From an uncultured Nitrososphaeraceae archaeon (lineage in GTDB: Archaea; Thermoproteota; Nitrososphaeria; Nitrososphaerales; Nitrososphaeraceae): DNA of 48,789 nucleotides. Shown here one piece after another: positions 11,646-33,676 of this stretch. A model generated the notes under the pieces. That model was given only the letters and a program-made list of their open reading frames with translations. It was not told the DNA's origin and did not search any database. The translations under genes were made by a program, and so were the position numbers. Where the stretch lies: assembly GCA_963837175.1 (NCBI GenBank), contig CAWIMJ010000036.1:1-48789 (forward strand), in the 5' to 3' direction. The first letter of the stretch is position 1; each line of letters begins with the position of its first letter.

Positions 11646-11742
11646 ATATCCCTTGTGGTAAAGGAGTTCAATTCATTTTATTTCAATTTGATTCAAATTG
11701 AGCCCTTTTATGAAATTGATTAAAGTTGCTAATGAGAGATTG

Positions 11743-12120: not shown

Positions 12121-12294
12121 CGGGTTCGGCGGAATGCAGGACAGATTTGACTCTATTGTGCCACCAAGGATTCATTCTATTTATAGAAATACATTCTCAG
12201 AATACAAAGACTGAGGACGAAGGCGAACTAAATATCTCAGAATCTATATAACAACGTTTTGCCAGACGTAGGAGAACATCTTGTAATTTATTTG
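12121..12294 (-). repeat. Conserved histidine-kinase trailer ending in a tRNA-3'-like site, copy A
   Basis: Highly similar to 31698-31873 and to parts of 14465-14811; similarity stops at cgggttcgg. Confidence 0.85.
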
Positions 12295-13989
12295 TTATTT
12301 GATCGGTAGGCTAAATGCAAAGGTAGCACCTTTTCCATCTGAGTTATTTTCAGCCCATATTTTCCCATCCTGGGCTTTAATTATTCCCTGTGATATGAAT
12401 AATCCAAGTCCAGTACCTTTAAAAGACTTTGTAGCAAACTTTGAAAACAGTCTTGGCAAAATCTCTGAATCTATTCCTGCTCCACTATCTTTCACACTCA
12501 CTATAACATTTCTAGAACTATTAACATAATCTCCTCCTTGTTCTTTTTCTTCTTCTTTATTTCTACCCTTTTTTTGTGTCACTCTTGCAGATACTGATAT
12601 AGTTCCATCTTTAGTGAATTTTATAGCATTATTTAGTAGATTTGCAATAACTTGGTATATTCTTGTTTTATCTGCATCTACAAATATAGCCTCATTTGGT
12701 TCTACAAATAATATTTTTAATTTATTAGAAGAGATTTGTTTTTCAATATCTTTTATAACATTTAATATTTTTTTATTTATATCAAATTTTTCTTTATTTA
12801 AAATTAGAGATCCACTTTCGATTTTTGAAACGTCTAATATATCTTCTGCAATTTGCCTAAGTCTGTTTGAGTTTCTAACAATAACATCTAGAAATTCCTT
12901 TTCTTTTTCTATATTTATAATAGCCCTGTTATTACTATTGTTTGTTTCTCTCTTTCTGAAGAGCAGGAGTTCAGATAGTGTAAGTATGGGCTGTATAGGG
13001 GTTCGCAGTTCATGTGCCGCCACATTTATAAATTCGTCCTTTAATTGATCTTTATGTTTTAGTTCTTCATTTGCATTTTCCAGTTTCTTTGTTAATTCAT
13101 TTTGTTTTTTGATATAGTTCTTTATAGAGTTCACCATAGAATTGAAGGACTCACTTAGAACTGAAAGTTCATCATTACCTCTGCTTTTAACTGATACTTC
13201 AAGATTTCCTCTCCTTACTTCGGACGTTGCTGTAGTTAGAGCAAATATTGGTTTTAATATCTTCATAACAAGGTAAAGCACAACAGCAGCAACTGAAATA
13301 TTTAAAATTGCAAAGATTGTTTGCAGAAACATTAAATTCTGCGAACTATTTCTGGCATATTGTCCTAACTGGGTAACCAATGCATTTGATAAATCTACTA
13401 AAGATAATGCTCTTGTTTCCGATGTTGTTTTTATAGCTTTGTCTATTGCTGTTGTTGTTGTTGTTGCTGCTGCTGTTGGGTTAATTTTTTCATTTGGTTT
13501 GATTATATTGTTTGTTAAGATTGTTTTTAGTGAAACCCATTTCTGATAAATTATATTCCAATCATCAAAAAATTCTAATGGCAACGGTTTTAGATCTACA
13601 TTTGATACCTTTCCACCTTGTCTTAATGCCAAGATGTTTGATTCCAATTGCTGTACTGCAGAGTTGATTTTAGATATATGATCGACTTTAGAAACATCAC
13701 TACTATCCGCTAAAAAATATTCTGACATATGAAGCATGAGATTAGAGGTGAGGTATCGATTCTTTCCTGCAATATTTATTGAATTTCCTAAATAAGTTCC
13801 CTGTGATTCATAGTAAGAGAGTACACTAAAACTGCTAATAATGAAAATAATTTGAATAACAACTAATATTCCTATTTTTAAGCCTATTTTAGAACGTATC
13901 AATCTAAAAGCATTAGTGCCATCGTACTTTAACATGATTATGTATATTGGAGGATGTATTTCAACATTAAGATGATAAGTTATTATCAT
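12295..13989 (-). CDS. Membrane sensor histidine kinase with PilJ/NarX-like extracellular domain and HAMP
   Basis: Two TM segments, SINIAGKNRYL motif, HAMP (DELSVLSESFNSM), AAHELRTP, N/G boxes; true start probably at a later Met. Confidence 0.93.
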   Translation of the reverse strand: MIITYHLNVEIHPPIYIIMLKYDGTNAFRLIRSKIGLKIGILVVIQIIFIISSFSVLSYYESQGTYLGNSINIAGKNRYLTSNLMLHMSEYFLADSSDVSKVDHISKINSAVQQLESNILALRQGGKVSNVDLKPLPLEFFDDWNIIYQKWVSLKTILTNNIIKPNEKINPTAAATTTTTAIDKAIKTTSETRALSLVDLSNALVTQLGQYARNSSQNLMFLQTIFAILNISVAAVVLYLVMKILKPIFALTTATSEVRRGNLEVSVKSRGNDELSVLSESFNSMVNSIKNYIKKQNELTKKLENANEELKHKDQLKDEFINVAAHELRTPIQPILTLSELLLFRKRETNNSNNRAIINIEKEKEFLDVIVRNSNRLRQIAEDILDVSKIESGSLILNKEKFDINKKILNVIKDIEKQISSNKLKILFVEPNEAIFVDADKTRIYQVIANLLNNAIKFTKDGTISVSARVTQKKGRNKEEEKEQGGDYVNSSRNVIVSVKDSGAGIDSEILPRLFSKFATKSFKGTGLGLFISQGIIKAQDGKIWAENNSDGKGATFAFSLPIK

Positions 13990-14464
13990 AAAAGCCCAAA
14001 ATAAGGATATATTCGATTAGAGCTAGACTTAGGTGTGCTACAACATGGCCTCTAAATACACAGTGAAGAGAATTACTATACAAGAAGTAACTAATTAGGA
14101 GGTGAGCTAGTAGCTATAATGATAGATGCACTTACCAAGACGAACCTACGGAAGTATTTCCTGGTGACCCATACCTAATGGCAAATATTGGAACTACCGG
14201 AGATCAGATAAGGACTGAAAAGATAGGAGATGAAGATGAAGAAGGAATTGATAGCAGTAGGGAAAATAATAGAGATAATAGGAGCTATTATTCAATCAAT
14301 CAGCAATATCACCTTTATTCTGACGAAAGCTTTCTGAATTATCCATTCTGTCCATTATCATGTTGATTAAATAGGTTTGGGAATGTCGATGATGACTGGA
14401 GCGATGCTAACGTAGGATTAAACCAAGAAGAATATTCGTGGTGGTAGTTATAAAATTTAATCCA

Positions 14465-14811
14465 CGGGTTCGGTGGGATTCGGGACAGAATTGACTCTAT
14501 TTTTCCACCCGGAAATTTTACATCAGTAGCTGAGATAATTTACATATGTTTATAATACATGTAAATTCTCCTGGTTCGGTGGGATTCGATACACTATAGT
14601 GTATGTAGTCAACTTTCTTCAGCAGGGAACTTTATCAAATGAAAATATCTGCAAAGCAAATCTTCTTTCTGTCCTTCTGGCCTCCCAGGATGCATCTATC
14701 TGTAGAAATTCATTCTCATAGTACAAAGACGGAGGACGAAGGCAAGCTAAATATCTCAATCCATATAACATCATTTTATCAGACATAGGAGAATTTCTTG
14801 TTATTCATTCG
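14465..14811 (-). repeat. Histidine-kinase trailer copy B, containing two tRNA-3'-like sites (14465, 14573)
   Basis: 14465-14512 and ~14685-14811 match copy A/C; extra ggttcggtgggattcga at 14573-14589. Confidence 0.8.
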
Positions 14812-16578
14812 TTATTTGATCGGTAGACTAAATGCAAAGGTAGCCCCTTTATCATTACCATTATTCTCAGCCCATATCTTTCCACCATGAGCTTCTACAA
14901 TATTTTTGCAAATGAATAATCCTAATCCCAGACCGCTACCTTCTAAGGATTTTGTAGCATACTTTGAAAATAATCTAGGTGAAATTTCAGGGTTTATACC
15001 TTCTCCAGTATCCTTAACGCTAATGATAACATGTTGATTACCTTCTTTCCTTTTTATATTAATTGATATACTTCCTTCTTTAGTAAATTTAATAGCATTC
15101 TTTAGTAGATTAGAGATAACTTGAGTTATTCTTCCTTTATCTGCTTTTACTGAAATAATATCATCTTTAACATCATATAGTAGTTTTACTTTCACATTAT
15201 CAATTTGGTCTATGACATCTTGTACTGCATTTAATATTATACCATTTAATTCGAACAGTTCATGGTTTAGTTTTAGTGATCGGCTTTCAATTCTTGTAAC
15301 ATCAAGTATATCTTCTGTAAGTCTTTGCAGTCTTTTTGCGTTTCTGAGTACGATACCAAGTAACGCAAGCTGTTCATCATTTTTTATTTTGGAGCGAAGA
15401 ACCTCAGATATGCCAAGTATAGGCTGAATAGGTGTTCGCAATTCATGTGATGCCACATTGATAAATTCATTCATTATTTTGTCATGTATTTTTAACTGTT
15501 CATTTGCTTCTTTAACTTGTAGATATAATTCAGTTTGTATCCAAAGGTTTTCAAATATAGAAACAAAAGATAGAACTCCTGATTTGCTATTAGAATATAT
15601 TGATAATCCTATTGCTTTGTCGAAAGTATCTTTTGAATCATCCTTTAATTCCATTACTAATGAAACTTTTCTATCGACTACTAAAAATGTGGCTTTATTC
15701 CCTGAAGATTGTTCGATGAATCGAACATCAATATTATTTTGATGACGTTGTCGTTTTAAATCTTGTACTATCTGTTCAGTTGATTTGTGGATAGGCATCA
15801 AGATTCTAATCTTTAGTTTATTGTACTGCTCTTTTGTTAGTACTTCTTTTAACCATTGTATTACTCCTATCTTCTCTTGGCGAATGATAGCATTAATAGT
15901 AGGAAATATCAGCAGTATTTCTTCTGCAGCATCTTTCACAATATTCATATAAAGATCCTTTGCCTTAGATGAATTTTGAATAACTTCAACAATATCTGGT
16001 TTTATTCCTTCTCCCATTTCTCTGATTTTCTGTTCTGCTGGAATTGATTTGCTCCATAAAGCTTCAAACATATATTCCTGCTGTTCTACAATTTCTTTGA
16101 CATTGCTATAGATAAGATGTGGTACTGGTTTTGCTTCTTGCAGAACTGCAGCAGCTACATATTCTTTTTCACTTACTGCCATTGCACCTTTGATTCCATC
16201 TAAATGGCGAACCTCTGCAATTTTCATCAGATCTTTGCAATATGATATGTTTTCTTTGGTAATTTCAGTAGCATATCTTATTCTAATACCCCTTTCTTTC
16301 AGGTCAACTGTTCCTCTTTTTATTGGTTCAACTCCCATCGTTACTGATGGCCCTGTAGAATTTGTACAAACATTCCATGTACTTCTTGTATTAGAGAAAG
16401 ATTGCAAAAGTCTAGCTGTTGTATTCTCTCCTCCATAGAATACCTCTGTACTTTCAGCGGCAGCGATTGCTCTTGCTTTTAGTTCTATTTCTTCTTCTTT
16501 CTCAGTATTGTTTATTGTTATTATTGTTCTATCCTTAGAATCAATACTACTATTTGTTTTGCTATCTTTGACATCCAA
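14812..16578 (-). CDS. Cytoplasmic sensor histidine kinase, paralogue of 6757-8409
   Basis: EVRHLDGIKG N-terminal motif, ASHELRTP, NLLKNAIKFT, DTGEGI, GSGLGLGL. Confidence 0.95.
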   Translation of the reverse strand: MDVKDSKTNSSIDSKDRTIITINNTEKEEEIELKARAIAAAESTEVFYGGENTTARLLQSFSNTRSTWNVCTNSTGPSVTMGVEPIKRGTVDLKERGIRIRYATEITKENISYCKDLMKIAEVRHLDGIKGAMAVSEKEYVAAAVLQEAKPVPHLIYSNVKEIVEQQEYMFEALWSKSIPAEQKIREMGEGIKPDIVEVIQNSSKAKDLYMNIVKDAAEEILLIFPTINAIIRQEKIGVIQWLKEVLTKEQYNKLKIRILMPIHKSTEQIVQDLKRQRHQNNIDVRFIEQSSGNKATFLVVDRKVSLVMELKDDSKDTFDKAIGLSIYSNSKSGVLSFVSIFENLWIQTELYLQVKEANEQLKIHDKIMNEFINVASHELRTPIQPILGISEVLRSKIKNDEQLALLGIVLRNAKRLQRLTEDILDVTRIESRSLKLNHELFELNGIILNAVQDVIDQIDNVKVKLLYDVKDDIISVKADKGRITQVISNLLKNAIKFTKEGSISINIKRKEGNQHVIISVKDTGEGINPEISPRLFSKYATKSLEGSGLGLGLFICKNIVEAHGGKIWAENNGNDKGATFAFSLPIK

Positions 16579-17270
16579 GAATGGGTTAGTGTTGTTATTC
16601 TTCTTCTCTTCTTTAATATTACTGTTTTTTATTATAGTCGGGATTCATCATCAACTTACTACCATTACTATAGTATACAACTTATTATCCCAATGTATGT
16701 ATATTGATCCCTACTTAAACACCTATGTTATTTGTTTGAAAGTATGATAAAAGAGCTAGTAAGATGAAGCAGCCAAAAATAAGTTCTCATCTGCCTAAGA
16801 AGTAACTTGTATCAAAGATATTTGAAAAACTTGGTTTGTTGTTGTTGTTTAGTTAGAGGTCATTTCTAATCTCACAACTAAAAACGCAAGATCCCAATAT
16901 CGACTTTACTATTATAATAAATATCTAAATCTTTTATTCTGAAATTATCACTTTGATTCGATGGGCTTGGAATATAGATGTGAACTATTAATGAAACAGA
17001 ATCGGGCCCATGGGATCGGGAATCAAGCATTGATATAATTTATGTGCTGAAATGACAATAATCAAAAGTTTTTTCTCATGACGATATGACTTCTATTATA
17101 AAATGTAGGTTCCTGTTGTTTGACTGTTCATTTAAAACGCTGTGATCGTTACTTTGATATACTTTCTCTTTCTCATATTAACCTTTTAGAAGTCTTTGAT
17201 AATCTAATCCTTAATTATTCTCTTACTTGTATTTTTCTTGTTGCTAATTATAACTTGTATATATATCTAG

Positions 17271-17519
17271 CTAAACACCAGGACCTACAGCAGGATCCCA
17301 GTCTGGGTTGCCGTCTCCATCCATGTCAGAAGTACTATCTACACCTTCATAGTCAGATTCATCTTCTTCTCCTGATATTTCTTCTTCAGATTTTTTTGTC
17401 ATTCTTACTGGCTTTTCGTCCTCCGGTCTAACTATTGCTTCTTTTGGAACATCAGGAAATTCTCCTTTTTTACTATCTTCTTGTGCACTTGCATTATTAG
17501 TATCGGTATCCGCAACCAT
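17271..17519 (-). CDS. Small acidic hypothetical protein (82 aa)
   Basis: MVADTDTNN...DMDGDGNPDWDPAVGPGV; the upstream extension to 17750 looks non-coding. Confidence 0.55.
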   Translation of the reverse strand: MVADTDTNNASAQEDSKKGEFPDVPKEAIVRPEDEKPVRMTKKSEEEISGEEDESDYEGVDSTSDMDGDGNPDWDPAVGPGV

Positions 17520-18033
17520 ATATCTCAGTGATAATAGCTTGTACGCCACACATGATTTAACAATTTCATAAAGCGCCAAGATTGGAATGGGCCGGGTCGT
17601 TTGTGAACTGTTGTCGACACAAATTTGTGGCCCATTGGTGCTAATCAATTTAACATGATTTTTAGAACTCTCATTGATCTGCTTTACTAACCGTTGAGGA
17701 ATTGGCGAAAACTTGGAAAGAATATTTGCTTCGAGTATACTATATTCCATATCTACATCCTTGACGATTAGCTTAAATGAACTAAGGTTCTGTTTAGCTT
17801 TATCTCATTAATCTCATTACATCATCTTGGGTTCCTCCCCTATAAACTACATCAATATTGCATGACATATTTTCTCTACCGATTTTGCAACTGATATCTT
17901 ATACTTTTCATCAGAGAGTCAATAAGTTCGGCTGAAACACTTAGTCCATAAGAGCGATCCTGGCATTGGAGAGATCTTTAATATGAACGGTTCAGTTATC
18001 ATCTCATTATTTATATGACTGGACATATAGAAT

Positions 18034-19407
18034 GTGACCCAAATTATGCTCTCTATAGTTAGTGTATTAAGTGGTAGCAAGCAGGCACTTGTACTAATTT
18101 TACTTATGGCTGTTGTTACTATAGTGGACTCTCAGTTCATTAACATTTTCTATGGAACTGATTTAGGAACTCCTGGCAATTTGCATTTGTTATTGTTTGT
18201 ATCATTTGTTATTATTGCTTCAATAATTAATACCATATTGCTGCTATTCGTCAAAAGAAATGATATTTATTCGACAACTAGTAGATCATTGTTGTTTAGA
18301 GTTGCTTATATTGGTACATCCATAGTTCAATACACTATATCGCTTGTATTGTTTATCACGATCTCAGAGATGCTCATTTTCCATGAATATAACAAGATAT
18401 TCTCATTATTAGTAGTCTTTCTCAGTCATTTTTGGTCAGCTATTATACTTGGAATTCTATCTTTAAGATTTATACAATGGTTTAGATTTGCTATATCATT
18501 TTCAATCCTAATTTATGGAGTTGTTTTCAGTATGATTCTATTTCTAATTTTACTCACGATTCCATTGCTTACACAACAGTTTACGAATCAGTCCCAGTTG
18601 ATATACCCCAGAGATTATACATCTCTAATTACGGCAGTAATTGTTCCTTCCCGTGACATTGCATTCATTTATGGACTGGGAAACTATGTTTTACCTCTGC
18701 TGATAATACCTTCATGGATCCTCACAGTTTTGTTACTTAAACCCTATGCAAACAGAATTGGGAAGAAGAAATTCTGGCTAATAGTTAGCATTCCATTACT
18801 CTACCAACTTTTCACATTTATCGTAAGAGATACAAACTTAGTAACTGATCCTACCCTAGTTCAAATTATATACTCCCAGCAATTCCAGGTCATCTTCGGA
18901 ATTAGCTATCAAGTATCTGGGTTATTTTTCGCTATTGCCTTCTTGAGTATTGGAAGAAAAATGAAACGAAAAGGCTTGAAAAACTATTTGATAATTTCTT
19001 CCATAGGTATCGTCTCATTATTTTGTTCAATGCAACCAGGAATGCCATTCTATGCGGTTTATCCCCCATTTGGACTTGTCACACTTTTGTTCTTAGGACT
19101 ATCATCATATATGCTTCTTGTTGGAATGCTAGGATGTGCAGCATATGTTTCTAGAGATAGTGAATTACGACGAGAGATCTATAAAGGCTTAGAAGTTGAT
19201 GCTGATGTCTTGAAGAAGATAGGAATGGCAGAAACTCAACGAGAAATAGAAAAGAGGGTCCTACCACTTGCCGACAAAATCAAATTGTCGGATGAGATGA
19301 GAAGCCGTATGGATACAGATCCTGACAAAGAAGATGTAAAACTAATGATAGAGGAGGTATTGAATGAGATACATAAGGGATCACGCATTAAACCAGGTCA
19401 TCGATAA
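18034..19407 (+). CDS. Polytopic membrane protein (~10 TM) with charged cytoplasmic C-terminal domain
   Basis: 457 aa of alternating hydrophobic segments; tail DSELRREIYK..LKKIGMAETQREIEK..EDVKLMIEEVLNEI. Confidence 0.85.
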   Translation: MTQIMLSIVSVLSGSKQALVLILLMAVVTIVDSQFINIFYGTDLGTPGNLHLLLFVSFVIIASIINTILLLFVKRNDIYSTTSRSLLFRVAYIGTSIVQYTISLVLFITISEMLIFHEYNKIFSLLVVFLSHFWSAIILGILSLRFIQWFRFAISFSILIYGVVFSMILFLILLTIPLLTQQFTNQSQLIYPRDYTSLITAVIVPSRDIAFIYGLGNYVLPLLIIPSWILTVLLLKPYANRIGKKKFWLIVSIPLLYQLFTFIVRDTNLVTDPTLVQIIYSQQFQVIFGISYQVSGLFFAIAFLSIGRKMKRKGLKNYLIISSIGIVSLFCSMQPGMPFYAVYPPFGLVTLLFLGLSSYMLLVGMLGCAAYVSRDSELRREIYKGLEVDADVLKKIGMAETQREIEKRVLPLADKIKLSDEMRSRMDTDPDKEDVKLMIEEVLNEIHKGSRIKPGHR

Positions 19408-19686
19408 TGCTGAAATTGGTAAATATTCTATTCTAAGTAACATTACGAATAAAACGCCAACCTATGAGTTAATATTTTCAATAGCTGGAACATATGAAAA
19501 TTCTGTTCAATTAGTTCTTATATGATTGTGACTACAATCAATCTGCTAAGAATGAAACTATCTCCAACCTTCAACACTGGCAGATTACCGCAATAAATTA
19601 ACAAATATTATCTCTCACATATTATTTGGTCGGAGTTATAAAAAGGTTATATCAATTAGTTCACAAACTTCAATAGTGTTAAACTG

Positions 19687-20484
19687 ATGCATATATCATC
19701 TCTTTATAATAGCATAAGATTAGACATTCGGAAGATGATATTCTTAATTCTATTAACGACAACCATCTTTATTATTACTAGTAGTAGCCTTTCAAAGAAC
19801 TTATACGCTAGTCCCTCTGGTATTGGTTTTTATTCTCCTAGTTCCCCACCATCTGGAGTTAAATCGCTTGAACCTTTAATAGCAAAGTGGTGGAATTGGG
19901 AGATTACCAACCCTAGTACTATTGATAATAATTGGCCTCAATGTCTTAAAGGAGATGGTGGAGTCATAGGTAATAACCAATCTGTAGTCTTTCTGGGAAA
20001 TCCCTCCTTTGCGGTAGCAAAAAACGTGAATGCAAGAAACCAAAAATGTGAAATATCTTCTAGTCAACTACTCTACTTGACTGTATATCCAGGTGAATGT
20101 TCTACAGGATCAAAACCTCATGAAGGAGAGTATCCGGATACGAAGTCCCCTGCTGATCTTTTAAAATGCGCACAAGATGCAAACAAAGAGATTAAATTGA
20201 TGCAAGTCAAGGTTGACGGCCAGGATGTTTCATCTAATATTGTCCGTCAAACTACCTCTAAACCATTCAATCTTATTGTGCCTCCCGATAATCCTTTTGA
20301 GTGGAAAGCGCCTATTGTTGGTGGAAATAATACATCAATGGCTGAAGATTATTATCTGTTCTTCAAACCATTGCCAGTTGGAGATCATACGATAGAATTG
20401 CATGTAATACGAAAACCCCTTCAAGCTAACCAACCTGTCGAAAATGACATTGCTAAGTGGAATATTAAGGTAGTCCCTGAATGA
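19687..20484 (+). CDS. Secreted Cys-containing hypothetical protein (KWWNW family)
   Basis: Signal-like segment; AKWWNW, C..VVFL, GECS, YLFFKPLPVGDH; paralogue of 22647-23360. Confidence 0.85.
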   Translation: MHISSLYNSIRLDIRKMIFLILLTTTIFIITSSSLSKNLYASPSGIGFYSPSSPPSGVKSLEPLIAKWWNWEITNPSTIDNNWPQCLKGDGGVIGNNQSVVFLGNPSFAVAKNVNARNQKCEISSSQLLYLTVYPGECSTGSKPHEGEYPDTKSPADLLKCAQDANKEIKLMQVKVDGQDVSSNIVRQTTSKPFNLIVPPDNPFEWKAPIVGGNNTSMAEDYYLFFKPLPVGDHTIELHVIRKPLQANQPVENDIAKWNIKVVPE

Positions 20485-21035
20485 ATCACTTTAACTATAG
20501 GACATTGGATCTTTTCAGTTCTGGCTCTTATGCTTTGTAGGCACCACTTTGATTCGATCGTGTTGGAAATGTAGATTACGATAACTGTGGCAATTATGAT
20601 ATAGGATGGAAGAAGTGTGAGAGCATTAGAAATATGAAAGAAATCTTACGTGATGTTTTGAATGAATTTTACTACCCAAGAAGAGTAAGGAAGACACACA
20701 GAAATAATAGAGAGTATATCAAAGATAGCAAGATTAATCGCTCCTATTTCTTAATGTTTCAGTCAAGCTTTAACCTTTCTAACGTCTAATACAGATACGT
20801 TCACTTAACCAGATACTTCCTGATGAAAAAAGGTGTGCTAGTATGTGCTTGGAAGAAAAGTCAGCTAGAATAGATAAGTAAAACCTGTCGATACTGATAA
20901 TATAAAAATATAGTTGGATAGATATATAATAGAAGTACTTCGGGAATGACTGTAGAAAGACATTCAATGATAAGACTTTAATTGTTATATTTATACCACA
21001 TTCTATTACTCTCCAAACCATTATTATTGCTATTG

Positions 21036-23360: not shown

Positions 23361-23562
23361 TAATAGTAAACAATCAGCAGGCTTTTTATTATCAATCTTT
23401 GCCTTTACTATTACGAAAACGTTCTGGATCTTCTATACTGTGGATATCCTCTTGGTTTGATAGGTTTGGGAGTGTAGATGAAGACTGCGACAATAGTGAT
23501 GATGTAGGATCGGTTGAAGAAGTGGTGGCGGCAGCACTAGATATTGCATTATCTGTCAATAC

Positions 23563-24576
23563 TGCTCTGTTGCATAACTTGTTTAAACAATCTTTTTCAT
23601 TACTCTATAATTGAGAATTATATAATGGCTATACTTTGAAACCAGTTATATAATGATGCTCTTAGTATTAGTTCCTTTATCATATTCTCAAATCTAATAG
23701 CAGTAACATTTATCCAAATATTCTTTTAATACATGAGAAGACGGTTTCTGCAATCCATCTCTTGCCATAGTTCACACTAACCTTCCAATTCTGTAAATTA
23801 TTTTTCTGTATTTTCACCATCTTGTTTCTAAGATAATGATTTACCTTTCTACATCTAGAATTCTTTCTAATCTTTATTGCTGGTTTGATTCCTTTAAATG
23901 ACAATATCTGAAAATTCTTGTTACTATCATACAAACCATCAGCAATTACTGTGTTTACTATTTTATTCTGCTTTATTGTTATTATATCATCTATCAATTC
24001 TGGAAGTATTTTACCATCATGTACTTGTTCACTGGTTACATGTAATGATAAAATTCTCTTCTTTTTTATGTCAACTGCTAAATGTATCTTTAGATAGCCT
24101 CTTTTGACATTCCATTTATGTCTAATCCACTCGCCTCTATTAGATACCTTTATTCCAGTAGAATCAATGGCAATTACAAAATGGTCATCATGTAAACTGG
24201 ATTTATTCGCATCATCAATTTTAATATGTAGTCTATTTATTCTTCTGCTAATGTTACTATAGTCAGGAATTGATGGTAATGTGTTTGAAGCATGCTCCCT
24301 AACTACTCCTTCAGTCTGTCTGTATGATGGTAAATGAAAATATGCTCTCATGTAGCCAAGTAATTTGATAAATGAATCTGGGTATACGAACTTTCTACCT
24401 TCTTTACCTTGATTCATCTTCTCTAATTCAGTAGGCCAGTTATCTATAACATCAAAATCAAGTAATACCTCACCACGTTTAACAAGAGATTCATTGTACT
24501 TGTTCCAGTTCACATGTATTATGACTAGAATAGGTTAGCTAAATGTGTTGGGAACAGGGAGTTATGCAACAAGGCA
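23563..24576 (-). mobile_element. IS5-family insertion sequence with TIRs and 8-bp target duplication
   Basis: TIRs TGCTCTGTTGCATAAC / TGCCTTGTTGCATAAC; GTCAATAC at 23555-23562 and 24577-24584. Confidence 0.92.
23710..24513 (-). CDS. IS5-family DDE transposase, C-terminus cut by a frameshift
   Basis: NWNKYNESLVKRGE, IAIDSTG, YLKIHLAVD, ADGLYD, RWIAETVFSCIKR; the tail (IRFENMIKELILRASLYN) is in another frame. Confidence 0.9.
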   Translation of the reverse strand: MNWNKYNESLVKRGEVLLDFDVIDNWPTELEKMNQGKEGRKFVYPDSFIKLLGYMRAYFHLPSYRQTEGVVREHASNTLPSIPDYSNISRRINRLHIKIDDANKSSLHDDHFVIAIDSTGIKVSNRGEWIRHKWNVKRGYLKIHLAVDIKKKRILSLHVTSEQVHDGKILPELIDDIITIKQNKIVNTVIADGLYDSNKNFQILSFKGIKPAIKIRKNSRCRKVNHYLRNKMVKIQKNNLQNWKVSVNYGKRWIAETVFSCIKRIFG

Positions 24577-25095
24577 GTCAATACCTCTACAACGTTTTCA
24601 TAATTCTTTTCGGCCAAGCCTAATAAGTTATCCTTGTTGGATTCAAGGTATTTGGTAAAGTTATTGCTATTATCTTTGTATACAGTATTACCAGAGGCTA
24701 TATGATAACAAATATTGTCAATTCCCCAGGTGTTTTAAGGTATACTGAATCATCGATCCCTTTGTTAAATTTTAGTCCGGAGCCTTTAGATACATTTTAG
24801 TTATTCATTCATACATTATACATTTTGAATTTATATAATCATAAAGTAGACTTTTTCGTAATACTAAGAAAACAAAATAGAATTGATAAGTATGACGAAT
24901 TAATTTTAGTAAATGATAATGGAATAACCAATATAGCAAGAGATTTATGGATTAAAGGAAAGCAAATCAATGTTCAAAAACTTAATCCTGACAATCCATC
25001 TGATAATCAGTACATCGGTTATACAAAATTCGAATTTGAATGCTCGCAGTGGGATTAGAATATTTGAGATAATTTGCTTTACTGCTGGAATTAAA

Positions 25096-26190
25096 TCAAT
25101 CTGCGATATCATCTTCACTATTATGAAAACTCCTTTGTCTTTCTATCCTCCTGTATGTATCACCCCCATTTGATGGCCTTGGGAACATAGATGATAATTT
25201 GGGGTCGGATGGAGGAGAAGAAGCGCCGGCATTTATAACGTTATTTATAGCATTATTTGTCAACTCTTCTACAAGGTTTTCGTACTGCTTTTCTGCTAAA
25301 TCTAATATGTTAAACTTATTGGATTCAAGATATTTTGTAATGTTATTGCTATTATCTTTGTGTTCGTCACCAACGTTCGTCGTAGATATGTTGTAAATTA
25401 ATTTCATCATTTCTGGATCAGCTTTTAACATCTGGATCAGTACGGTAAATGATACTGATATTACTTGTTTATTTTCTGCTAAGATGGCTTTAACATATTC
25501 TTTGACGATCTGCTTTAGCTCATCATTGTTTGAAACGTTTGCAATCCATTTTTCTAATCTATCCTTTTGGGCAATAAGCTCCTGTAACTGCTGTTCTTTT
25601 CTCTTGCAATCTTGTTCACAAGAAAATGCAGTTTTATCTAATATTGATATTTTATATTCCAAAGCCTTTATAACATTTAGCAAATGATGTCGTGTCTGTT
25701 GCATCTTCTGAGTCTCATCTCTGGCTTGTATATACAGAGTTTCTGTATGAGGAAGTCGATTAACAGCAGTATCTATAGCATTAACTACCTGTTCAATACT
25801 CATGCCTCTTTGCTTTATTAGTAGTTTGTATAATTTCAAAATTGGACCTAATTTACCATTTGTCTCCTTGAATATCGAATTGAGTACGTGCATTCGTTTT
25901 AGCTTCCAGTATTCATTGTATAATTTGGTTGCGTCTGGCTGTCTTAAGTTTAGTGCGATCGCGACTTCAACAGGGCGCTTACCCTCAGCAAAAAGTTTGT
26001 AAGCTTTGGAAGATAGCTCTTCCTGATGTTGCTTGTGTTCATATTTTTGTCGTCTGGCTTGTTCTTCCTTTACCATAGCATGTATGTCACATGGAGATAT
26101 TCTTTCTATCTTTGCTATTTCAGTATAAGTCTTATGCTGATTAAAATATAGTTCTATTACGCGCCTTTTTCGTTCTTCCGATATCTGCAA
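25096..26190 (-). CDS. HTH/coiled-coil repeat-family protein, intact copy 4
   Basis: 364 aa; two HTH-like segments (KTYTEIAKIERISP; KRPVEVAIALNL) followed by a long coiled coil. Confidence 0.85.
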   Translation of the reverse strand: MQISEERKRRVIELYFNQHKTYTEIAKIERISPCDIHAMVKEEQARRQKYEHKQHQEELSSKAYKLFAEGKRPVEVAIALNLRQPDATKLYNEYWKLKRMHVLNSIFKETNGKLGPILKLYKLLIKQRGMSIEQVVNAIDTAVNRLPHTETLYIQARDETQKMQQTRHHLLNVIKALEYKISILDKTAFSCEQDCKRKEQQLQELIAQKDRLEKWIANVSNNDELKQIVKEYVKAILAENKQVISVSFTVLIQMLKADPEMMKLIYNISTTNVGDEHKDNSNNITKYLESNKFNILDLAEKQYENLVEELTNNAINNVINAGASSPPSDPKLSSMFPRPSNGGDTYRRIERQRSFHNSEDDIAD

Positions 26191-26195
26191 ACTAA

Positions 26196-27110: not shown

Positions 27111-27144
27111 TAAGTGATTCAAGCTAGAATAAATGGATCCAAAC

Positions 27145-27280: not shown

Positions 27281-27458
27281 TTTAATTACATTGTAAAGTC
27301 AAACTTTGAATAGAAAAATCATTGAGCATAAAGAAGAGAAACTCTCAGGAACCTAGGAAGCACTAATTCTAAGAGAGACAGATAGAGTAGTTAGACTAGA
27401 ATGGATAGTGTCCTATATCGCAAGCTAGAAAAGAATCTATTATTACTTCTCTTAAGTG

Positions 27459-29165
27459 TTAGGCTAGATCTGGTTCAGTATGCACTATTACCCTGCTAGC
27501 CCCTGTCTGCTGAATAATTAGATTTTGAACATATGTGGCTATTCTGTGTGCATCCTCTAATGTAGTAGAAGTTTTTCCCATCTCAGCTTTAATATTTATT
27601 ATCAGAGTTATATGCTGTTCTCCATTCACATCTACTGCAGCTATATCTTTGCAGTCGACAACTCTATCTACAGATAAAGCTGTTTTTCTTATTTTTTCTA
27701 TATCTGACTGGCTGGCTTTCTTCTCTGTTCCTATTATTGATACATCTTCAGTAGCTTCTATTTCTATATGAGTTGTAATATTTCTTATTTGGGAAATTTC
27801 GTTTTTCAATCTGTTTTCAAAAGATTCTATAATGTTGTGAGCAGTATTAAGGTCAAGATAAGAATTCACTTGAACATCAAGGTACAGATGTAATGATGGT
27901 GATGGTGGTGGTAGCTGTTGTGGAGAATGATTCTTTTTATTTTCTTCTCTTCTGGCAGATAGATTACTATTTGAGTTTGCAAATATTTTTTCTCTTTCAT
28001 TTCCTCCTCCTTCTTTTTCATCTGCTGTCGATTCTATCAACGATTCAGATGATGATGTATCAGGGGATACAGAGGAAGAAGGTATTTTTGACATATATAT
28101 TGAATGAACATTTTTTATGCCATCTGTTTCTGCAGCAGTTAGTCTTATTCTATCAGTTATAGTTTCACTAGCAAATTCTGTTGCGTCTACATGTACTAAT
28201 ACATTAGAGTTTGGTAAAATATGCCTGACCTTTTCTTCAACTGCTGTCGCTACTCTGTGAGCTCTGTCATGAGTGAAGGTTCGTGGAACCTCAATATGCA
28301 TATCAACATAATTTTCTGACCCCATCTTCCTAATACGAATATCATGTGGTCTGCTGACACCTTCAAGTCCAGATACTGTTTCTAGAACTTGATGATATAC
28401 ACCTTTAGGTGCCTTATCTAATAGCACATCTAATGTCCTTCTTCCAAGTCCCAATGATGTATATATTATCATACCAGCTACTATAATCGCTGCATAAGCA
28501 TCAGCATTAGGAATATTAAATATCAATACTAAGAAAAGTCCTACAACAACTATTGCAGAAGAAAACATATCTGTTTTGAAATGAAGAGCGTCTGCTTCCA
28601 GTGCCTGACTGCCAAACTTCCTTGCAGTTTTGTATAATGCTCTGAATCTTCCAAAATCAACTCCTATGGACACTAACATAATCACAAATGAGAATACTGT
28701 AATTTCTGGTTGTATATTTTTGACTAGTAATATTCTCACTATACCTTCATAGAATACCCAGCCAGCTACTGCAAATAAAAGTATAATTTCAGCTAAACTA
28801 ACGATACTTTCAAATTTTGCATAACCGTACGTATATCTCGAATCTGGAGGTCGCATCACTATGCGTATGGCGGAGAACGTCATCAATGCAGCTATAAAAT
28901 CAAGTCCAGAATGCATAGATTCAGATAAGATTCCAAGACTGTTTGTCGAAAACCCTATGACAAATTTTAGCACCATAAGTGATGCTGAAGCTATAATAGA
29001 AGTAATAGCTACTCTTACCTTCTCCTCTAATGCAATTCTTCTTTCTAAGAGAGAGGATTTTGTTTTTGCTGTTGTTGTTGATTCTTTTCTATCTACCGCT
29101 TTGTGTGTATTATTGTAGTGAAGATTATCATTGTCATTATCATTATCGTCATCTTTCTTTACCAC
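27459..29165 (-). CDS. Cation diffusion facilitator (CDF) transporter with repeated C-terminal dimerisation domains
   Basis: SESMHSGLD, ADALHFKTD, then repeated AH..A..VE..VHVD / THIE / VHTEP modules. Confidence 0.92.
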   Translation of the reverse strand: MVKKDDDNDNDNDNLHYNNTHKAVDRKESTTTAKTKSSLLERRIALEEKVRVAITSIIASASLMVLKFVIGFSTNSLGILSESMHSGLDFIAALMTFSAIRIVMRPPDSRYTYGYAKFESIVSLAEIILLFAVAGWVFYEGIVRILLVKNIQPEITVFSFVIMLVSIGVDFGRFRALYKTARKFGSQALEADALHFKTDMFSSAIVVVGLFLVLIFNIPNADAYAAIIVAGMIIYTSLGLGRRTLDVLLDKAPKGVYHQVLETVSGLEGVSRPHDIRIRKMGSENYVDMHIEVPRTFTHDRAHRVATAVEEKVRHILPNSNVLVHVDATEFASETITDRIRLTAAETDGIKNVHSIYMSKIPSSSVSPDTSSSESLIESTADEKEGGGNEREKIFANSNSNLSARREENKKNHSPQQLPPPSPSLHLYLDVQVNSYLDLNTAHNIIESFENRLKNEISQIRNITTHIEIEATEDVSIIGTEKKASQSDIEKIRKTALSVDRVVDCKDIAAVDVNGEQHITLIINIKAEMGKTSTTLEDAHRIATYVQNLIIQQTGASRVIVHTEPDLA

Positions 29166-29576
29166 AATTAACTTCTTTTAAAATATCCTCTTTTACGTAT
29201 ATATACTTAGTTAACAGCATATTACGTGTATCTTCTAGTTGTCACATTAATGAATTGATATATTGAGATATAATCGAAATGTATTTTAGAGTCCATATGT
29301 ATATTGTGGATAAATTAATTTCTATGTTAAAGCAGGTTGCTGGTATTCTAGTATCTTTGTTAATGATAATACCCAAAAAGTAAATGTCTAACTCAGTACA
29401 AGCAGTGTAGGAATTTATCCAGCTTGATAATTTGAATTTTGTAGTTTCTTTGTAGACAACATCAACATCATAATATTGATCTCAGTTAAAATATATAGAC
29501 AATAATGAGACTACACTTATAAGTGTAAAATAAAATACGTCGCTTCTCTTTGGTTCAACTTTTTTTACATTTGTAA

Positions 29577-30290
29577 TGCATTGTTGCATAACTGACTCTT
29601 CTGTAAGTATGAACTGACCTATCTGGATTTAGCTTAGATATTATAATGACAACTAGTGGTTAACTGCTGGCATAACTATAATGAATCATTAGTCAGACGT
29701 GGAGAGGTAATTCTGGATTTTGATGTTATTGATAGATAGCTGGGATAATGAATTGGACAATATGAATAATGGTAAGCAAGGTGGTGCATTCTATAAATAT
29801 CCAAATTCTTTTGTTCAATTGCTTGATTGGTTATATGAGAGAGCATATTTTTCATTTACCATCATATAGACAGACAGACTGAAGGTGTTGTTAGAGAGAG
29901 TATATACTGGTAGTAAAGTACGCTCTATTCCAGATTACACAGTACAATAAACAAAGAAGACTAAACAAACTAGATATTAGAATTAACAAAAGAATAGCAA
30001 ATGATATTGTCATAGTATTATTAGATAATAGTACTGGGATCAAGGTAACTAACTAATAGAGGAGGAGGAGAGTGGTGGTTAGCTAGCTCACAAATGGAAT
30101 ATAAGAAAAGGATACCTCAAAATACATGTCGCAGTAGATATCAAAAAAAAGAAGAAAATTGTATCCTTAGAAGTTACAACCAAAGAAGTACATATGATGG
30201 AATGATGGAATGATGCTAATAAAGAAGCTGATAGAAAATGCTGCTGAGAATAACGATGTAAAAAGAATGATTGAGTTATGCAACAATGCA
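29577..30290 (+). mobile_element. Internally deleted, decayed IS5 element (same group as 23563-24576)
   Basis: TIRs TGCATTGTTGCATAACT (29577) and AGTTATGCAACAATGCA (30290); fragments WHNYNESLVRRGEVILDFDVID and GYLKIHVAVDIKK. Confidence 0.88.
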
Positions 30291-30653
30291 GTTGGAAAGT
30301 AAAGATAAAATAAAGCCCTTTTTTTTGTCAGTTTATAATTGTGTTATCATTGTTTCCCTGATGCTATATTTTTTATTATTCTCATATCATAGTTTGTTAT
30401 CTTTATTATTACTATGATTCAGAGGCAGCATTCTGCTTGACTAATTGAATACAGGTTTACTGTTGTATTTAATACAGTCTTGGCATTAAGATATGAATTA
30501 CGCTACTCAATCTTCTAACAATACCAGCACTTTGACTACCCTACTACAAAGATATTAATAAATATTCATCCTAGATTAAAGACTTCCGAGAAACTATTCA
30601 TGAGGATAGCACATCGAAGACGTTGGAAAGCTGATATCTGGTGAACAAATAAA

Positions 30654-31430
30654 TTGGCAGTTACTTTATTAGGATCTTTACTATGGGGACTTATTGCTAG
30701 TATTCCTCTGCTTATAGGATCTGTAGTAGCATCTTATGTAAGCCTTCCAAAAAATATTATTGCAACAATAATGGCTTTTGGCAGTGGAGTATTGGTTGCA
30801 GCTCTAGCCTTCTCTTTAATGGAAGAAGCCTTTCAATTAGCACAACAATCTATTCTACCTGTAATCATTGGTTTTGCTGCCGGAGGAGTATCTTATAGCG
30901 TAGTAAATTATGTCCTTAACAAAAAAGGAGGCACAAAGCATAGAAAAAAATCTCATGGTGAAAATGCAGGAGGAGGAAAGAATGCCTCAGGATTAGCTTT
31001 ATTGATAGGTTCTGTCATGGATAACATCCCTGAAAATATGGCACTTGGAATATCGTTAGTAACAGGAGGAGCAGTAAACGTGGTTCTCATAGTAGCTATT
31101 TTTCTTTCAAACTTTCCAGAAGGATTATCGTCATCTCAAGGTATGAAAGCACATGGAAGAAGCAAAAGATATATACTTACATTGTGGTCTATAGCAGTTG
31201 TTATAGGAACAATATCGGCATATATTGGGTTTAGTTTTCTATCCAATACAAATCCAGCTATAATATCAATAGCAATATCATTTGCTGCAGGGGCAATACT
31301 TGTTATGTTAGCTGAATCAATGATACCTGAAGCTCATGAGGAAGGAGGAGGAGTGAGTAGAATAGGTCTTGCTACTATGGCAGGTTTTGCTATTGCATTT
31401 ATTCTTGGAAGGTTGAAAGGGAGCAGCTAA
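30654..31430 (+). CDS. ZIP-family (ZupT/GufA-like) metal transporter
   Basis: MAFGSGVL, MDNIPENMALG, LSNFPEGLS, ESMIPEA motifs. Confidence 0.9.
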   Translation: MAVTLLGSLLWGLIASIPLLIGSVVASYVSLPKNIIATIMAFGSGVLVAALAFSLMEEAFQLAQQSILPVIIGFAAGGVSYSVVNYVLNKKGGTKHRKKSHGENAGGGKNASGLALLIGSVMDNIPENMALGISLVTGGAVNVVLIVAIFLSNFPEGLSSSQGMKAHGRSKRYILTLWSIAVVIGTISAYIGFSFLSNTNPAIISIAISFAAGAILVMLAESMIPEAHEEGGGVSRIGLATMAGFAIAFILGRLKGSS

Positions 31431-31697
31431 TTATAAGAAGAAGAATAGTTGGACTTGACGAAATCACGGAATTTGATATCTTTTTGTTCTATATCAAGAC
31501 CCTCAAACTTACAGAAATTCAAGAATCTTTCTAATAGATTGGGAATTGTCTTTGAACTTCTTTTGATTTTAATGCAATTTTTAATTTTGTATAAGGAGAT
31601 AATCTTGATGATGAAACTAGTAGTGAATCAGTAGATATCTCGGTAGACATTATGACATTATCATGATGTAGTCCTATAAAACGATACACTAGTGAAG

Positions 31698-31873
31698 CGG
31701 GTTCGGTGTAATGCAAGACAGAATTGACTCATTTTTACCACCCAGGATTCATTCTATCTATAGAAATACATTCTCAGAATACAAAGACTGAGGACAAAGG
31801 TGAACTAAATATTTTCAGAAATCTATATAACATCTTTTTTGCAAACGTAGGAGAATTTCTTGTTATTTATTAA
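31698..31873 (-). repeat. Histidine-kinase trailer copy C ending in a tRNA-3'-like site
   Basis: aggattcattctat.tatagaaatacattctcagaatacaaagactgaggac shared with 12121-12294. Confidence 0.85.
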
Positions 31874-33676
31874 TTAATCTATCGGTAAGCTAAAACTAAA
31901 CGTAGCGCCTTTTCCATTTGAGTTATTTTCAGCCCATATTTTCCCATCATGAATTTCAATAATACTCTTTGAGATAAACAAACCAAGACCAGTACCTTCA
32001 AAAGATTTTGTAGCAAACTTTGTAAATAGCCTTGGTAGAATTTCAGAGTCTATTCCGCTACCTGTATCCTTTACAATAACAAGAATATGATTGTCTTCTT
32101 TTTCTGTATTGACAGAGATAGATCCTCCTCCTTCTTTTGTGAATTTTATAGCATTACTTAGAAGATTGAAAATAACTTGTGATAATCTTTCTTTGTCTGC
32201 TTTTACAATAATATCTTTAGTCTCATACAATATTTTTATATTCTCTTTTTTATTGTTAAAATATTTATTTCCTGTTATATCATTTATGGTATTTACAATT
32301 ACATCGTTTAGATTAAATTGTTCTTTGTGTAGTTTCAATGATTTGCTTTCAATCCTTGTAACATCAAGTATATTTTCTGTGAGTCTGCGAAGTCTTTTTG
32401 CATTTCTAGATATAACATCTATCAGAGTAAGCTGTTCATTATTTTTTATTTCTGATTTAAGGGTTTCACTTAGTCCAAGTATGGGTTGTATAGGAGTACG
32501 TAATTCATGTGCTGCTATATTAATAAATTCATTTTGCATATTAGCATGAACTTTCAACTGTTCATTTGCTGATTCTAATTTTTTATTGGCTAATACAAGT
32601 TGTTTGTTGGACTCATCTAATTCTTTTGTCCTTCTTTTTACCTCTCTATCTAAACTGCTATTCCATTTAATAAGAAAGACAATTAAGATTACAACTGCAG
32701 TAGTTATGCCTGCAAGTAGTGAAAATGTCTGTAATCTTTGTACAGAAATAACACCATTGATCTGCGAATAAATTGTTGAAGTAGGTGTTATTACAAAAAT
32801 AAAATATATGGGTTTTCCTGCAACAAAAATAGGACTTCCTGTATTTAGTCTTTCACCATTCTTAAATTCATAAATATCAAAATCTTGTTTTCCTGACAAT
32901 ACTGTTCGTATTAGGTTATTTAGGATCGTGTTGTTTTCAGTAACTTCTTGTGTACGGCTACCAAAGAATGGTGTTCCAATAAGTGATTTAACTGGATGAA
33001 TTAATTGAACGGAGCCTCTATCCAAAACTGCTAGATATTGTGATTTTATATTATAGATATTTCCATAATGCTCAAAAAATGATATTGTGGGTATTGCAGC
33101 TCCTACTAAACCTAAATACTGCCCTGTGTTCTCATTTACAATTGGATAAGTTAAAGCTATTCCGTATTTACCATCCGTTCCTTCAAAGCCATTAGAAAAT
33201 ACTGGCATTTGTGTATCTTTTGTTTGCTTTACCCATTCATTATAGGAAAAGTCGATACCTACAAACGAATTTTCACCTTTTGGAATTATATTAATTGTTG
33301 CTATGTTGTCTTTATTTAAAATAAAAAGCCTATCTACTAGAGTTATAGAATTTATCTGCTTATATACTTCTTGTAATAATTTTGTAGTCTCATTACCAGA
33401 CAATTCTCCTTGTTGTAATATTGCAGAATTGGTTAACATCTGAAGCCTTGCCATAATCGAATCCAAATCTGAGCTAATATGATGAGAAAGAGCTTCTGTA
33501 GCGTCTATCTGTCGCTGCTTTTGCTGATCAAATAAGCTGTTTCTGATATTCTTTTCTGTATTATTCTGTAAATAAAAAAATAGTCCATATGAAATTCCTA
33601 TAATCAATATAATAGAAAGAATAGTAATTTTCTGTGTGTTTAAAGGAAAAATATTACGATATTTTTTAAAAGCCAT
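31874..33676 (-). CDS. Membrane sensor histidine kinase with Cache-like extracellular domain
   Basis: Two TMs flanking DFSYNEWV..PVFSNGF..IALTYPI..YLGLVG; AAHELRTP; N/G boxes. Confidence 0.94.
   Translation of the reverse strand: MAFKKYRNIFPLNTQKITILSIILIIGISYGLFFYLQNNTEKNIRNSLFDQQKQRQIDATEALSHHISSDLDSIMARLQMLTNSAILQQGELSGNETTKLLQEVYKQINSITLVDRLFILNKDNIATINIIPKGENSFVGIDFSYNEWVKQTKDTQMPVFSNGFEGTDGKYGIALTYPIVNENTGQYLGLVGAAIPTISFFEHYGNIYNIKSQYLAVLDRGSVQLIHPVKSLIGTPFFGSRTQEVTENNTILNNLIRTVLSGKQDFDIYEFKNGERLNTGSPIFVAGKPIYFIFVITPTSTIYSQINGVISVQRLQTFSLLAGITTAVVILIVFLIKWNSSLDREVKRRTKELDESNKQLVLANKKLESANEQLKVHANMQNEFINIAAHELRTPIQPILGLSETLKSEIKNNEQLTLIDVISRNAKRLRRLTENILDVTRIESKSLKLHKEQFNLNDVIVNTINDITGNKYFNNKKENIKILYETKDIIVKADKERLSQVIFNLLSNAIKFTKEGGGSISVNTEKEDNHILVIVKDTGSGIDSEILPRLFTKFATKSFEGTGLGLFISKSIIEIHDGKIWAENNSNGKGATFSFSLPID

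Follow-up and report, generated by a model that had tools for sequence, protein, structure and literature searches.

Integrated mobile genetic elements (iMGEs) of thaumarchaea are described in the main text of PMC6563490 as inserting into the 3'-distal part of tRNA genes, with a tyrosine recombinase beside the site and attachment (att) repeats of a median length of 17 bp; according to the same text, arrays form by the re-use of one site. Genomic islands flanked by integrases are mentioned in the text of PMC13245735 for Nitrosocosmicus skin strains, and archaeal integrons, in the text of bioRxiv 10.1101/2022.02.06.479319, use attC sites together with the integrase IntI. The genomes of soil Nitrososphaeraceae are large, their families of signalling and accessory genes are expanded, and the origin of these expansions is poorly understood. 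Here we analyse a stretch of 48,789 nt from an uncultured Nitrososphaeraceae archaeon (contig CAWIMJ010000036.1 of assembly GCA_963837175.1, called the window in the following), in which three histidine kinase genes end in a common non-coding trailer. In the explanation that we consider probable, the distal part of this trailer, element E, is an att site of integrative elements recombining at the 3' end of a tRNA-Lys(CTT) gene, the kinase lineage sits at the right end of the blocks bounded by such sites, and the proximal part, D1, is a tail of the kinase lineage.

The window is contig C36 of a metagenome-assembled genome (MAG) of 58 contigs and 3.81 Mb (33–34% G+C, 91% complete). This genome is labelled G000, its congeners G002–G006, and two genomes of a sister genus G007 and G052. 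A Pfam search found four open reading frames (ORFs) with HisKA and HATPase_c domains in the window, all on the minus strand (HK1 to HK4). As the initial annotation had it, three of them with differing sensor regions (HAMP in HK2, none in HK3, PF22309 in HK4) have a trailer of about 175 nt 3' of the gene: repeat finding and alignment place it at 12121–12294, at 14465–14509 plus 14680–14811, and at 31698–31873, and the comparison with the first (HK2) copy gives E-values of 2.6e-53 and 7.8e-30. The sequence past the motif cgggttcgg is unrelated among all three copies. That the similarity ends there, which had been noted for the window, holds equally for 16 further copies from the genus: when 19 trailer copies were aligned, ten from the window's genome and nine from six congeners, the similarity vanished just beyond CCGAACCCG. 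The statement that the fourth kinase gene (HK1, at 6757) lacks the trailer was likewise borne out, as alignment found no similarity to the trailers 3' of its stop codon and a scan for the tRNA-like core described below found no such motif nearby. Along seven trailer-bearing kinase units the mean pairwise identity, with unaligned positions scored as 0, is 0.05–0.15 in the sensor part, 0.5–0.7 in the kinase core, 0.75–0.78 in the last 180 coding nt and 0.74–0.80 in the trailer; beginning 180 nt after the stop codon it is 0.00. A variable sensor region is typical of kinase families generally and nothing links it to a cassette mechanism; as a property of the cassette, which had been suggested, it is not supported.

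A genome-wide search with the trailer splits it into the proximal D1 (about 125 nt) and the distal E (about 50 nt). Both together are present in all six other genomes of the genus; 34 genomes from other genera gave one weak match. In the direction of the kinase strand, E consists of a conserved arm of about 27–30 nt and a following copy, about 20 nt long, of the tRNA-Lys(CTT) 3' end. When an E copy was compared with the 25 tRNAs found by ARAGORN in the genome, its positions 3–22 corresponded to the 3' end of tRNA-Lys(CTT) at C7:3527-3621 (20 of 20 positions in one copy, E 6e-8), that is, to the end of the T-loop and the 3' strands of both the T-stem and the acceptor stem. The copy at 14465 keeps 19–20 of the tRNA positions and the one at 12121 about 15. 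The window itself contains no tRNA gene, the likeness being to this tRNA-Lys(CTT) on another contig. The earlier designation of the terminal motif as an att-like site is thereby given a concrete basis, as its outer 20 nt or so copy a tRNA 3' end and the units end exactly there.

Iterated nhmmer searches recovered 74 copies of E from the genome, 71 of them outside called ORFs (≥90 aa). A 16-nt core, with up to two mismatches allowed, occurs 52 times and never in reversed or complemented controls; 29 of these matches are E copies, and among the others three or more additional arms are distinguished: arm B, with a palindrome of 14 nt, arm C, in which a longer T-arm-like stretch is retained, and arm D. 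Altogether at least four arm types combine with at least five left-end types around one core. Of the flanks of the E copies, 38 outer and 24 inner ones are unique, and the remaining flanks form families that combine freely. The conservation of E is one of sequence and peaks in the central block GGACAGAWTTGACTC (plus strand), two positions of which are invariant in all 60 unique copies. With a central crossover, one would expect the left half of E to go with the outer flank and the right half with the inner one. A half-site comparison of pairs having only the inner flank in common gave 0.749 for the right and 0.691 for the left half (backgrounds 0.683 and 0.726); this trend has the expected direction, is small and non-independent, and was not used as evidence. 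A role of E as terminator or promoter was judged by gene orientation and rejected, with neighbouring genes facing both ways (32 versus 26 on one side, 41 versus 25 on the other). A scan of viral contigs with the arm motif gave no match.

With these parts defined, the trailer of HK3 becomes readable. The copy of HK3 is broken by a second att-like site (core 14571–14586) and a 60-nt spacer. On the kinase strand the order behind HK3 is D1, a degenerate arm remnant, arm B with its core (14571), the spacer, and arm A with its core (14465), and this nested order explains why only parts of the interval 14465–14811 had been recognised as trailer before.

HK2 lies between direct, co-oriented core repeats at 14465–14480 and 12121–12136, which are 2345 bp apart, and on the kinase strand this block has the left-end module L1 at its start and D1, arm A and the core at its end. 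A kinase gene on contig C34 is bounded by cores at 103363 and 106681 in the same manner. A further element, about 4.7 kb long, lies between direct core repeats inside a tandem array on contig C8, in the order arm A with core (86905–86920), a flank of the integrase type, an integrase fragment (48% identity over residues 20–220), an ORF of 258 aa, arm B with core (91590–91605), and an L1 left end. In the HK2 block and in the C8 element, direct repeats of the 3' part of a tRNA gene thus bound the DNA, as is the case for tRNA-targeting elements.

Congeneric genomes show alternative states whose break coincides with the core. The unit that lies past the HK2 att site (11692–12120) has homologues preceded by an arm-A att site in four loci of three congeners, and across the core of the homologous junction one finds arm A, D1 and HK2 in the window, arm B in G005 and arm C in G002, thus three arms in three species. 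In front of an HK2-like unit of G004 (90% identical) lie an L1 module and a block which in G000 is found on contig C16, the homology stopping at the outer end of E. The long-range synteny between the window and its congeners is a mosaic of multi-copy pieces in which no simple empty site for the kinase cassette could be read. Joints suggested by the DNA run X1 (for example 14317 to 16946) have sides of only 21–39 nt at 90% likeness, probably stem from paralogues and were not used. As to the proposal that kinase, trailer and att site behave as a cassette, the position of HK2 between direct cores and the differing neighbours across loci and species speak for it, but the att part is not specific for kinases: only eight of the 97 att-like sites counted below follow one.

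The same exchange is seen at the tRNA gene. In five genomes of the genus the sequence 5' of tRNA-Lys is conserved and the sequence right after its last base is not. In G000 and G002 the flank begins with TACGATATCAG and leads into a co-directional tyrosine recombinase gene; module L1 directly follows the tRNA in G006 and another module, L2, in G003, and in G004 the contig ends at the last base of the tRNA. All three flanks (integrase-type, L1 and L2) also abut the outer end of E copies elsewhere. It is at this tRNA locus only that a tyrosine recombinase gene adjoins the site. The intact ORF of G002 (419 aa) starts 58 nt past the tRNA. Against PF00589 the G000 copy scores 32.4 bits, over the cut-off, and the G002 ORF 23.6 bits, under it; the NCBIfam model for archaeal XerA and integron integrases gives 36 bits at a cut-off of 220. 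No relative in the PDB was found by sequence, and public data hold 3140 relatives at E ≤ 1e-10, many of them carrying the label integrase and some placed in Nitrososphaeraceae. By eye, the 419-aa translation shows the motifs that the family would be expected to have: an Arg in box I, H-x-x-R, and a later His and Tyr. Integrase genes or fragments also lie near other tRNA genes of G000, at C2:28777-29280 (near tRNA-Ala, C2:29810), C17:54379-54733 (near tRNA-Val, 54209) and C7:51718-52924 (beside a tRNA at 53034), so several families of tRNA-targeting elements coexist in this genome.

Table 1. Features of the window that belong to the four histidine kinase genes, their trailers and the att-like sites.
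Feature	Position	Strand	Remarks
Unit past HK2 att site	11692..12120	-	about 430 nt; homologues of 84.9–87.3% in G005, G002 and G006
att core 1	12121..12140	-	copy of tRNA-Lys(CTT) 3' end, outer end of trailer; 16-mer at 12121–12136 with 2 mismatches
Arm A of HK2	12141..12166	-	carries near-invariant GGACAGAWTTGACTC; nhmmer E match 12119–12166
D1 of HK2	12167..12294	-	between HK2 stop and arm A; nhmmer 12168–12292, E 2.3e-33
HK2	12295..13989	-	HAMP, HisKA and HATPase_c (Pfam); sole gene of the 2345-bp core-to-core cassette
HK2 5' region	13990..14096	-	common to C17 unit; homology ends at 14096
Left-end module L1 (U-fam1)	14283..14463	-	abuts core 2; nhmmer 14283–14455, E 6.1e-39
att site 2	14464..14510	-	core 14465–14480 and arm A
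Spacer	14511..14570	.	60 nt, contains inverted repeat, between two att sites
att site 3	14571..14631	-	core 14571–14586 and arm B; 45-nt arm common to C21:49310 and C51:31495
D1 of HK3	14688..14811	-	nhmmer 14688–14809, E 1.8e-28; degenerate arm-A remnant at 14632–14687
HK3	14812..16578	-	HisKA and HATPase_c, no Pfam sensor domain
att site 4	31696..31745	-	core 31698–31713 and arm A
D1 of HK4	31746..31873	-	nhmmer 31745–31870, E 2.3e-31
HK4	31874..33676	-	PF22309 sensor domain, HisKA and HATPase_c (Pfam)
HK1	6757..8409	-	histidine kinase, HisKA and HATPase_c (Pfam); without trailer or att site; contrast case

When E copies and core matches are merged, the genome has 97 att-like sites. Adjacent sites on the same contig are co-oriented in 55 cases and opposed in seven (binomial p 2.4e-10), and at distances of up to 20 kb the ratio is 47 to four. 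Co-oriented neighbours have a median spacing of 3.6 kb; the 42 intervals of up to 7 kb contain 0–6 ORFs each, the blocks spanning 0.1–7 kb. The sites are clustered in islands, with none on contigs of 398, 240, 153, 137 and 129 kb and four within 18 kb on a 264-kb contig. For eight of the 32 kinase-like ORFs of the genome, a co-oriented att site is found no more than 450 nt beyond the stop codon. The sites that do not follow a kinase follow genes for SnoaL, methyltransferases, hydrolases, Usp and other proteins. As cargo of the blocks we found SnoaL-like proteins, FkbM and other methyltransferases, alpha/beta hydrolases, an AsnC-type regulator, RibD_C and DUF1326, and furthermore Usp, polysaccharide deacetylases, an RTX-repeat protein, an Nramp fragment and a short-chain dehydrogenase.

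These observations suggest the following mechanism. The core, a copy of the tRNA 3' end about 20 nt long, would be the place of strand exchange and the conserved arm of about 27–30 nt the element side, and the reaction would probably be catalysed by the tyrosine recombinase encoded directly 3' of tRNA-Lys. With integration occurring again and again, both at the tRNA gene and at existing att sites, co-oriented arrays would be built, in which short blocks of accessory genes, most of them without an integrase of their own, are divided by sites of arm and core. One kinase lineage would ride at the right end of such blocks, and this would explain why kinase, D1, arm and core always end at the core with an unrelated flank beyond. 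Judged from sequence comparison, the kinase gene together with D1 and the att site is the right end of an integrative cassette, whose present-day mobility we put forward as a proposal only.

A number of findings weigh against this explanation. ORFs within the blocks face both ways, 54 in the tRNA sense and 31 opposite. Integrase-like sequence occurs in only four of the 55 co-oriented intervals, and with 51 intervals lacking it mobilisation would have to act in trans. The tRNA-Lys-linked recombinase of G000 is split into overlapping ORFs of 156 and 267 aa, either by a frameshift or by an assembly error, and no intact integrase of its family was found in this 91%-complete genome, its other members being fragments. 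Most E copies diverge from the tRNA in the T-loop part, and the identity is firm over about 16 nt only. The HK2 unit has a duplicate on contig C17 (C36:12122-14096 corresponds to C17:60884-58892 at 91.1% over 1997 columns), which ends 5' at 14096 with no core in either locus; at least this boundary has another origin. L1 has 40 copies in the genome, and in only about 13 of them a core comes right after the module; it shows homology with the terminal 150 nt or so (the 3' end) of a multi-copy ORF family, and could have been captured as a gene fragment or could mark a secondary target. No excised circle, no empty site of the kinase cassette and no recombination activity were observed. Finally, the counts are somewhat inflated by near-identical duplicate contigs in the MAG, and 11 pairs of E copies have both flanks in common.

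Two side observations belong here. Many small contigs are duplicated at 97–100% identity (C30/C31, C23/C35, C51/C52, C18/C9 and C26/C28/C40), as strain variants or as true duplications, and 4000–6292 of the window is 99% identical to the start of contig C30 (G000:C30:1-2294). There are five L1 copies in the window (14283–14455, 16895–17008, 20518–20620, 23380–23541 and 25083–25225), only the first of which abuts an att core. The copy at 25083–25225 overlaps the 3' end of a 364-aa ORF (25096–26190), so that L1 resembles the C-terminal coding end of a multi-copy gene family, and the one at 23380–23541 lies 170 nt from the end of a DDE transposase ORF (23710–24513, minus strand; DDE_Tnp_1, DDE_Tnp_1_5).

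Several of these points would be expected if the E copies were fossil scars, that is, dead remnants of integrase-bearing elements eroded by deletion, the kinases having spread by segmental duplication and by homologous recombination between E copies. The integrase-family sequences of the genome, mostly fragments and with the tRNA-linked copy split, fit such a decay, as do the non-core 5' boundary of the HK2/C17 unit and the many degenerate E copies, whose nhmmer scores fall to 18 bits. We nevertheless think it unlikely. The central block of the arm is near-invariant (60 of 60 unique copies at two positions) while flanking positions vary, a pattern that points to ongoing constraint and not to decay; intact or near-full-length integrases persist in congeners, some of them inside arrays; and identical junction flanks occur with different arms in three species. 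Homologous recombination between 50-nt repeats alone would not cut exactly at the core. Still, the homology of L1, the non-core boundary, the absence of an intact integrase from the genome and of any member of its family from the arrays of a sister genus, and the lack of an excised form leave open the reading that many of the sites are relics.

The sister genus just mentioned allows a look beyond the genus. In two complete genomes of this genus tRNA-Lys(CTT) is followed by six and seven further co-oriented cores, over 42 and 63 kb respectively (G007:C1:2091279-2133254 and G052:C1:2413401-2476522). tRNA-anchored arrays are therefore a family-wide phenomenon; that those of the sister genus contain no member of the tRNA-Lys integrase family at E ≤ 1e-8 weighs against the mechanism suggested above. 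Three other genomes of the genus of the window contain 48, 35 and 40 cores, compared with 0–11 per genome in 37 genomes of 17 other genera of the family and 0–4 in controls; this tally across genera takes in one unpublished genome (G055), on which no result given here depends. What sets the genus of the window apart is the large number of copies and their spread over several islands, together with arm A and D1.

A short, high-copy and mostly intergenic (71/74) repeat that is restricted to a genus (six of six congeners, one weak match in 34 others) and that is found in nested copies behind HK3 could also bring to mind a tRNA-derived miniature transposable element, resembling miniature inverted-repeat transposable elements (MITEs) or short interspersed nuclear elements (SINEs), which landed behind an ancestral kinase gene and was then copied along with it. 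This we judge extremely unlikely. Neither terminal inverted repeats nor target-site duplications were found in the 74 aligned E copies with their flanks or in the 52 core contexts, and the 91%-complete genome gave no match to TnpA (PF01797) or TnpB (PF07282) of IS200/IS605, for which control genomes were matched. Moreover, co-orientation in arrays, the mixing of arms and left ends at the core and a polymorphic flank of the tRNA gene are not properties of transposition. An IS200/IS605-type end or an omega-RNA scaffold was rejected on the same grounds, namely that TnpA and TnpB are missing from the genome.

D1 has a different distribution. According to nhmmer there are ten copies in the genome, nine directly adjoining a kinase-like ORF at its stop codon and the tenth (on C39) located behind a kinase 3' remnant, and when the six congeners are included D1 follows a kinase 3' coding end in 19 of 19 copies. 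The association of the trailer with kinases is thus upheld for D1 but not for E, which stands behind varied genes. At third codon positions the identity is 0.55 over the C-terminal 230 codons and 0.61 over the final 60, compared with 0.74–0.80 in the trailer, so that D1 evolves slower than synonymous sites. Its subtypes, for instance with or without a 3-nt insertion, are common to different species and are not grouped within genomes, and therefore selection fits the conservation better than homogenisation within genomes. A coding trailer was rejected, as short ORFs are not conserved across the copies and the lengths of indels are not divisible by three. As a sequence-constrained non-coding tail, D1 is part of the kinase lineage and not of the att site. 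It is most likely a 3' untranslated region (UTR) of the kinase genes or a cis-regulatory stretch. Its distal part has a TATA-like stretch and two near-repeats of TGTATT(T)CT; to see promoter or protein-binding elements in them is speculation.

Conservation beyond that of synonymous sites would also be compatible with the whole trailer being a functional RNA, be it a 3' UTR with structure or a small RNA, the similarity ending where the transcript ends. A metatranscriptome contig of 241 nt (one library, X19) indeed covers 12140–12380 with one mismatch, and thus joins the 3' end of HK2, D1 and most of arm A. To that extent the expression of the trailer, for which a check had been recommended, has a first indication, but DNA carry-over is possible; the contig fits read-through from the kinase gene into D1 and the arm. 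The structure, for which a check had also been recommended, did not materialise. A search of the window against Rfam 15 gave no match at or above the gathering score, and the only match at E ≤ 1 within 11900–14900 lies inside the kinase coding region and is unrelated. The consensus fold of 15 trailers has −1.96 kcal/mol with a compensatory change in one of 17 predicted pairs, the single-sequence fold has z = −1.74, and RNAalifold on a separate alignment gave weak folds on both strands. In E a 5-bp inverted repeat is broken in 13 of 60 unique copies, without covariation and without paired columns of high mutual information, and E stands beside unrelated genes in either orientation. For the trailer as a whole a functional RNA is therefore very unlikely; for D1 alone it may still hold.

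Some further features of the window were noticed. Metal-related genes around the kinase cassettes encode a cation-efflux protein with three ZT_dimer stretches, ZIP-like transporters and a multicopper oxidase (27459–29165, 30654–31430, 4026–5003 and 5010–6224). A unit of about 2.6–2.9 kb at 17921–20839, with two ORFs (18034–19407, 457 aa; 19687–20484, 265 aa), neither of which has a Pfam match, recurs at 91–93% identity at C34:117614-120421, C42:463-3067 and C15:21627-24094 and also in the congener G005; it may be an undescribed mobile element. An inverted repeat of about 700 nt (9013–9708 and 42118–42807, 79–90% identity) with a third partial copy at 25863–26189 consists of paralogous segments, and within the ORF 1574–1948 two 75-nt copies (1741–1920) lie 105 nt apart at 99% identity.

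If the explanation by tRNA-Lys-directed integration is true, one recombination site bounding about 100 small blocks would be a testable mechanism for the expansion of gene families and the building of islands in ammonia-oxidising archaea, and a second cassette platform in Archaea, evolved independently of the classical integrons. A bolder version goes further: a tRNA-Lys-specific tyrosine recombinase would mobilise in trans dozens of integrase-less cassettes, all with the same terminal site of about 50 nt made of arm and tRNA fragment, in an integron-like system, thereby assembling the islands and having multiplied a lineage of sensor kinases, with D1 as a cis element travelling along. We hold this version to be possible but less than probable. 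On the practical side, flexible regions of fragmented MAGs can be located simply by means of the 16-nt core and the arm. These also explain why assemblies of the genus break at such sites, tRNA-Lys being found in three congeners at a contig end or no more than about 420 nt from one. The integrase and its att pair would be a candidate tool for site-specific integration in a group that is still without genetic tools.

How does the system relate to those already described? As tRNA-targeted integrative elements and tandem arrays are known in the phylum from the main text of PMC6563490, the route that had been suggested as undescribed is not wholly so. Like the thaumarchaeal iMGEs described there, the system has the 3' part of a tRNA gene as target, a short att, an adjoining tyrosine recombinase and arrays. 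Unlike them, there are about 100 att-like sites per genome in several islands, mostly with intervals of 0.1–7 kb, 51 out of 55 of these without an integrase; an arm of about 27–30 nt is common to unrelated cargo, and one kinase lineage has its own conserved tail. The main text of PMC6563490 makes no mention of Nitrosocosmicus, tRNA-Lys or histidine kinases, and the text of bioRxiv 10.1101/2022.02.06.479319 none of Nitrososphaeria or tRNA. In the literature searched, supplementary tables not being covered, no description of the E repeat or of the kinase cassettes was found.

With integrons and clusters of attC sites lacking integron-integrases (CALINs), including the archaeal ones (as given in the text of bioRxiv 10.1101/2022.02.06.479319), the system has in common co-oriented short accessory blocks, a conserved species-specific site, a recombinase beside the primary site and the lack of a recombinase in most blocks. 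Unlike in integrons, however, E has no imperfect palindrome of the attC type, the only inverted repeat being the 5-bp one broken in 13 of 60 copies, and the site derives from the 3' end of a tRNA. As a rule, cassettes of integrons hold one promoterless ORF each, in a common direction, whereas the blocks described here hold 0–6 ORFs, 54 versus 31 by strand, and the tRNA-Lys-linked recombinase is only a weak match (36 bits, cut-off 220) to the model that covers the integron integrase.

Acinetobacter plasmids carry Xer-dependent pdif modules, small integrase-less modules bounded by 28-bp XerC/XerD sites in alternating orientation. Similar to these, gene modules without an integrase are bounded here by recombinase sites and shuffled between contexts; in contrast to them, the sites are direct repeats of a tRNA fragment and the recombinase reaches 36 bits against the archaeal XerA cut-off of 220. 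With MITEs and repeats resembling repetitive extragenic palindromic (REP) sequences, E shares that it is short, high-copy, intergenic and lineage-specific, but it has no inverted termini or target duplications, is co-oriented and forms the junction between exchangeable flanks. The system therefore belongs to the tRNA-targeting integrative elements, and it is integron-like in its short integrase-less blocks, its one shared site and the integrase at the primary site.

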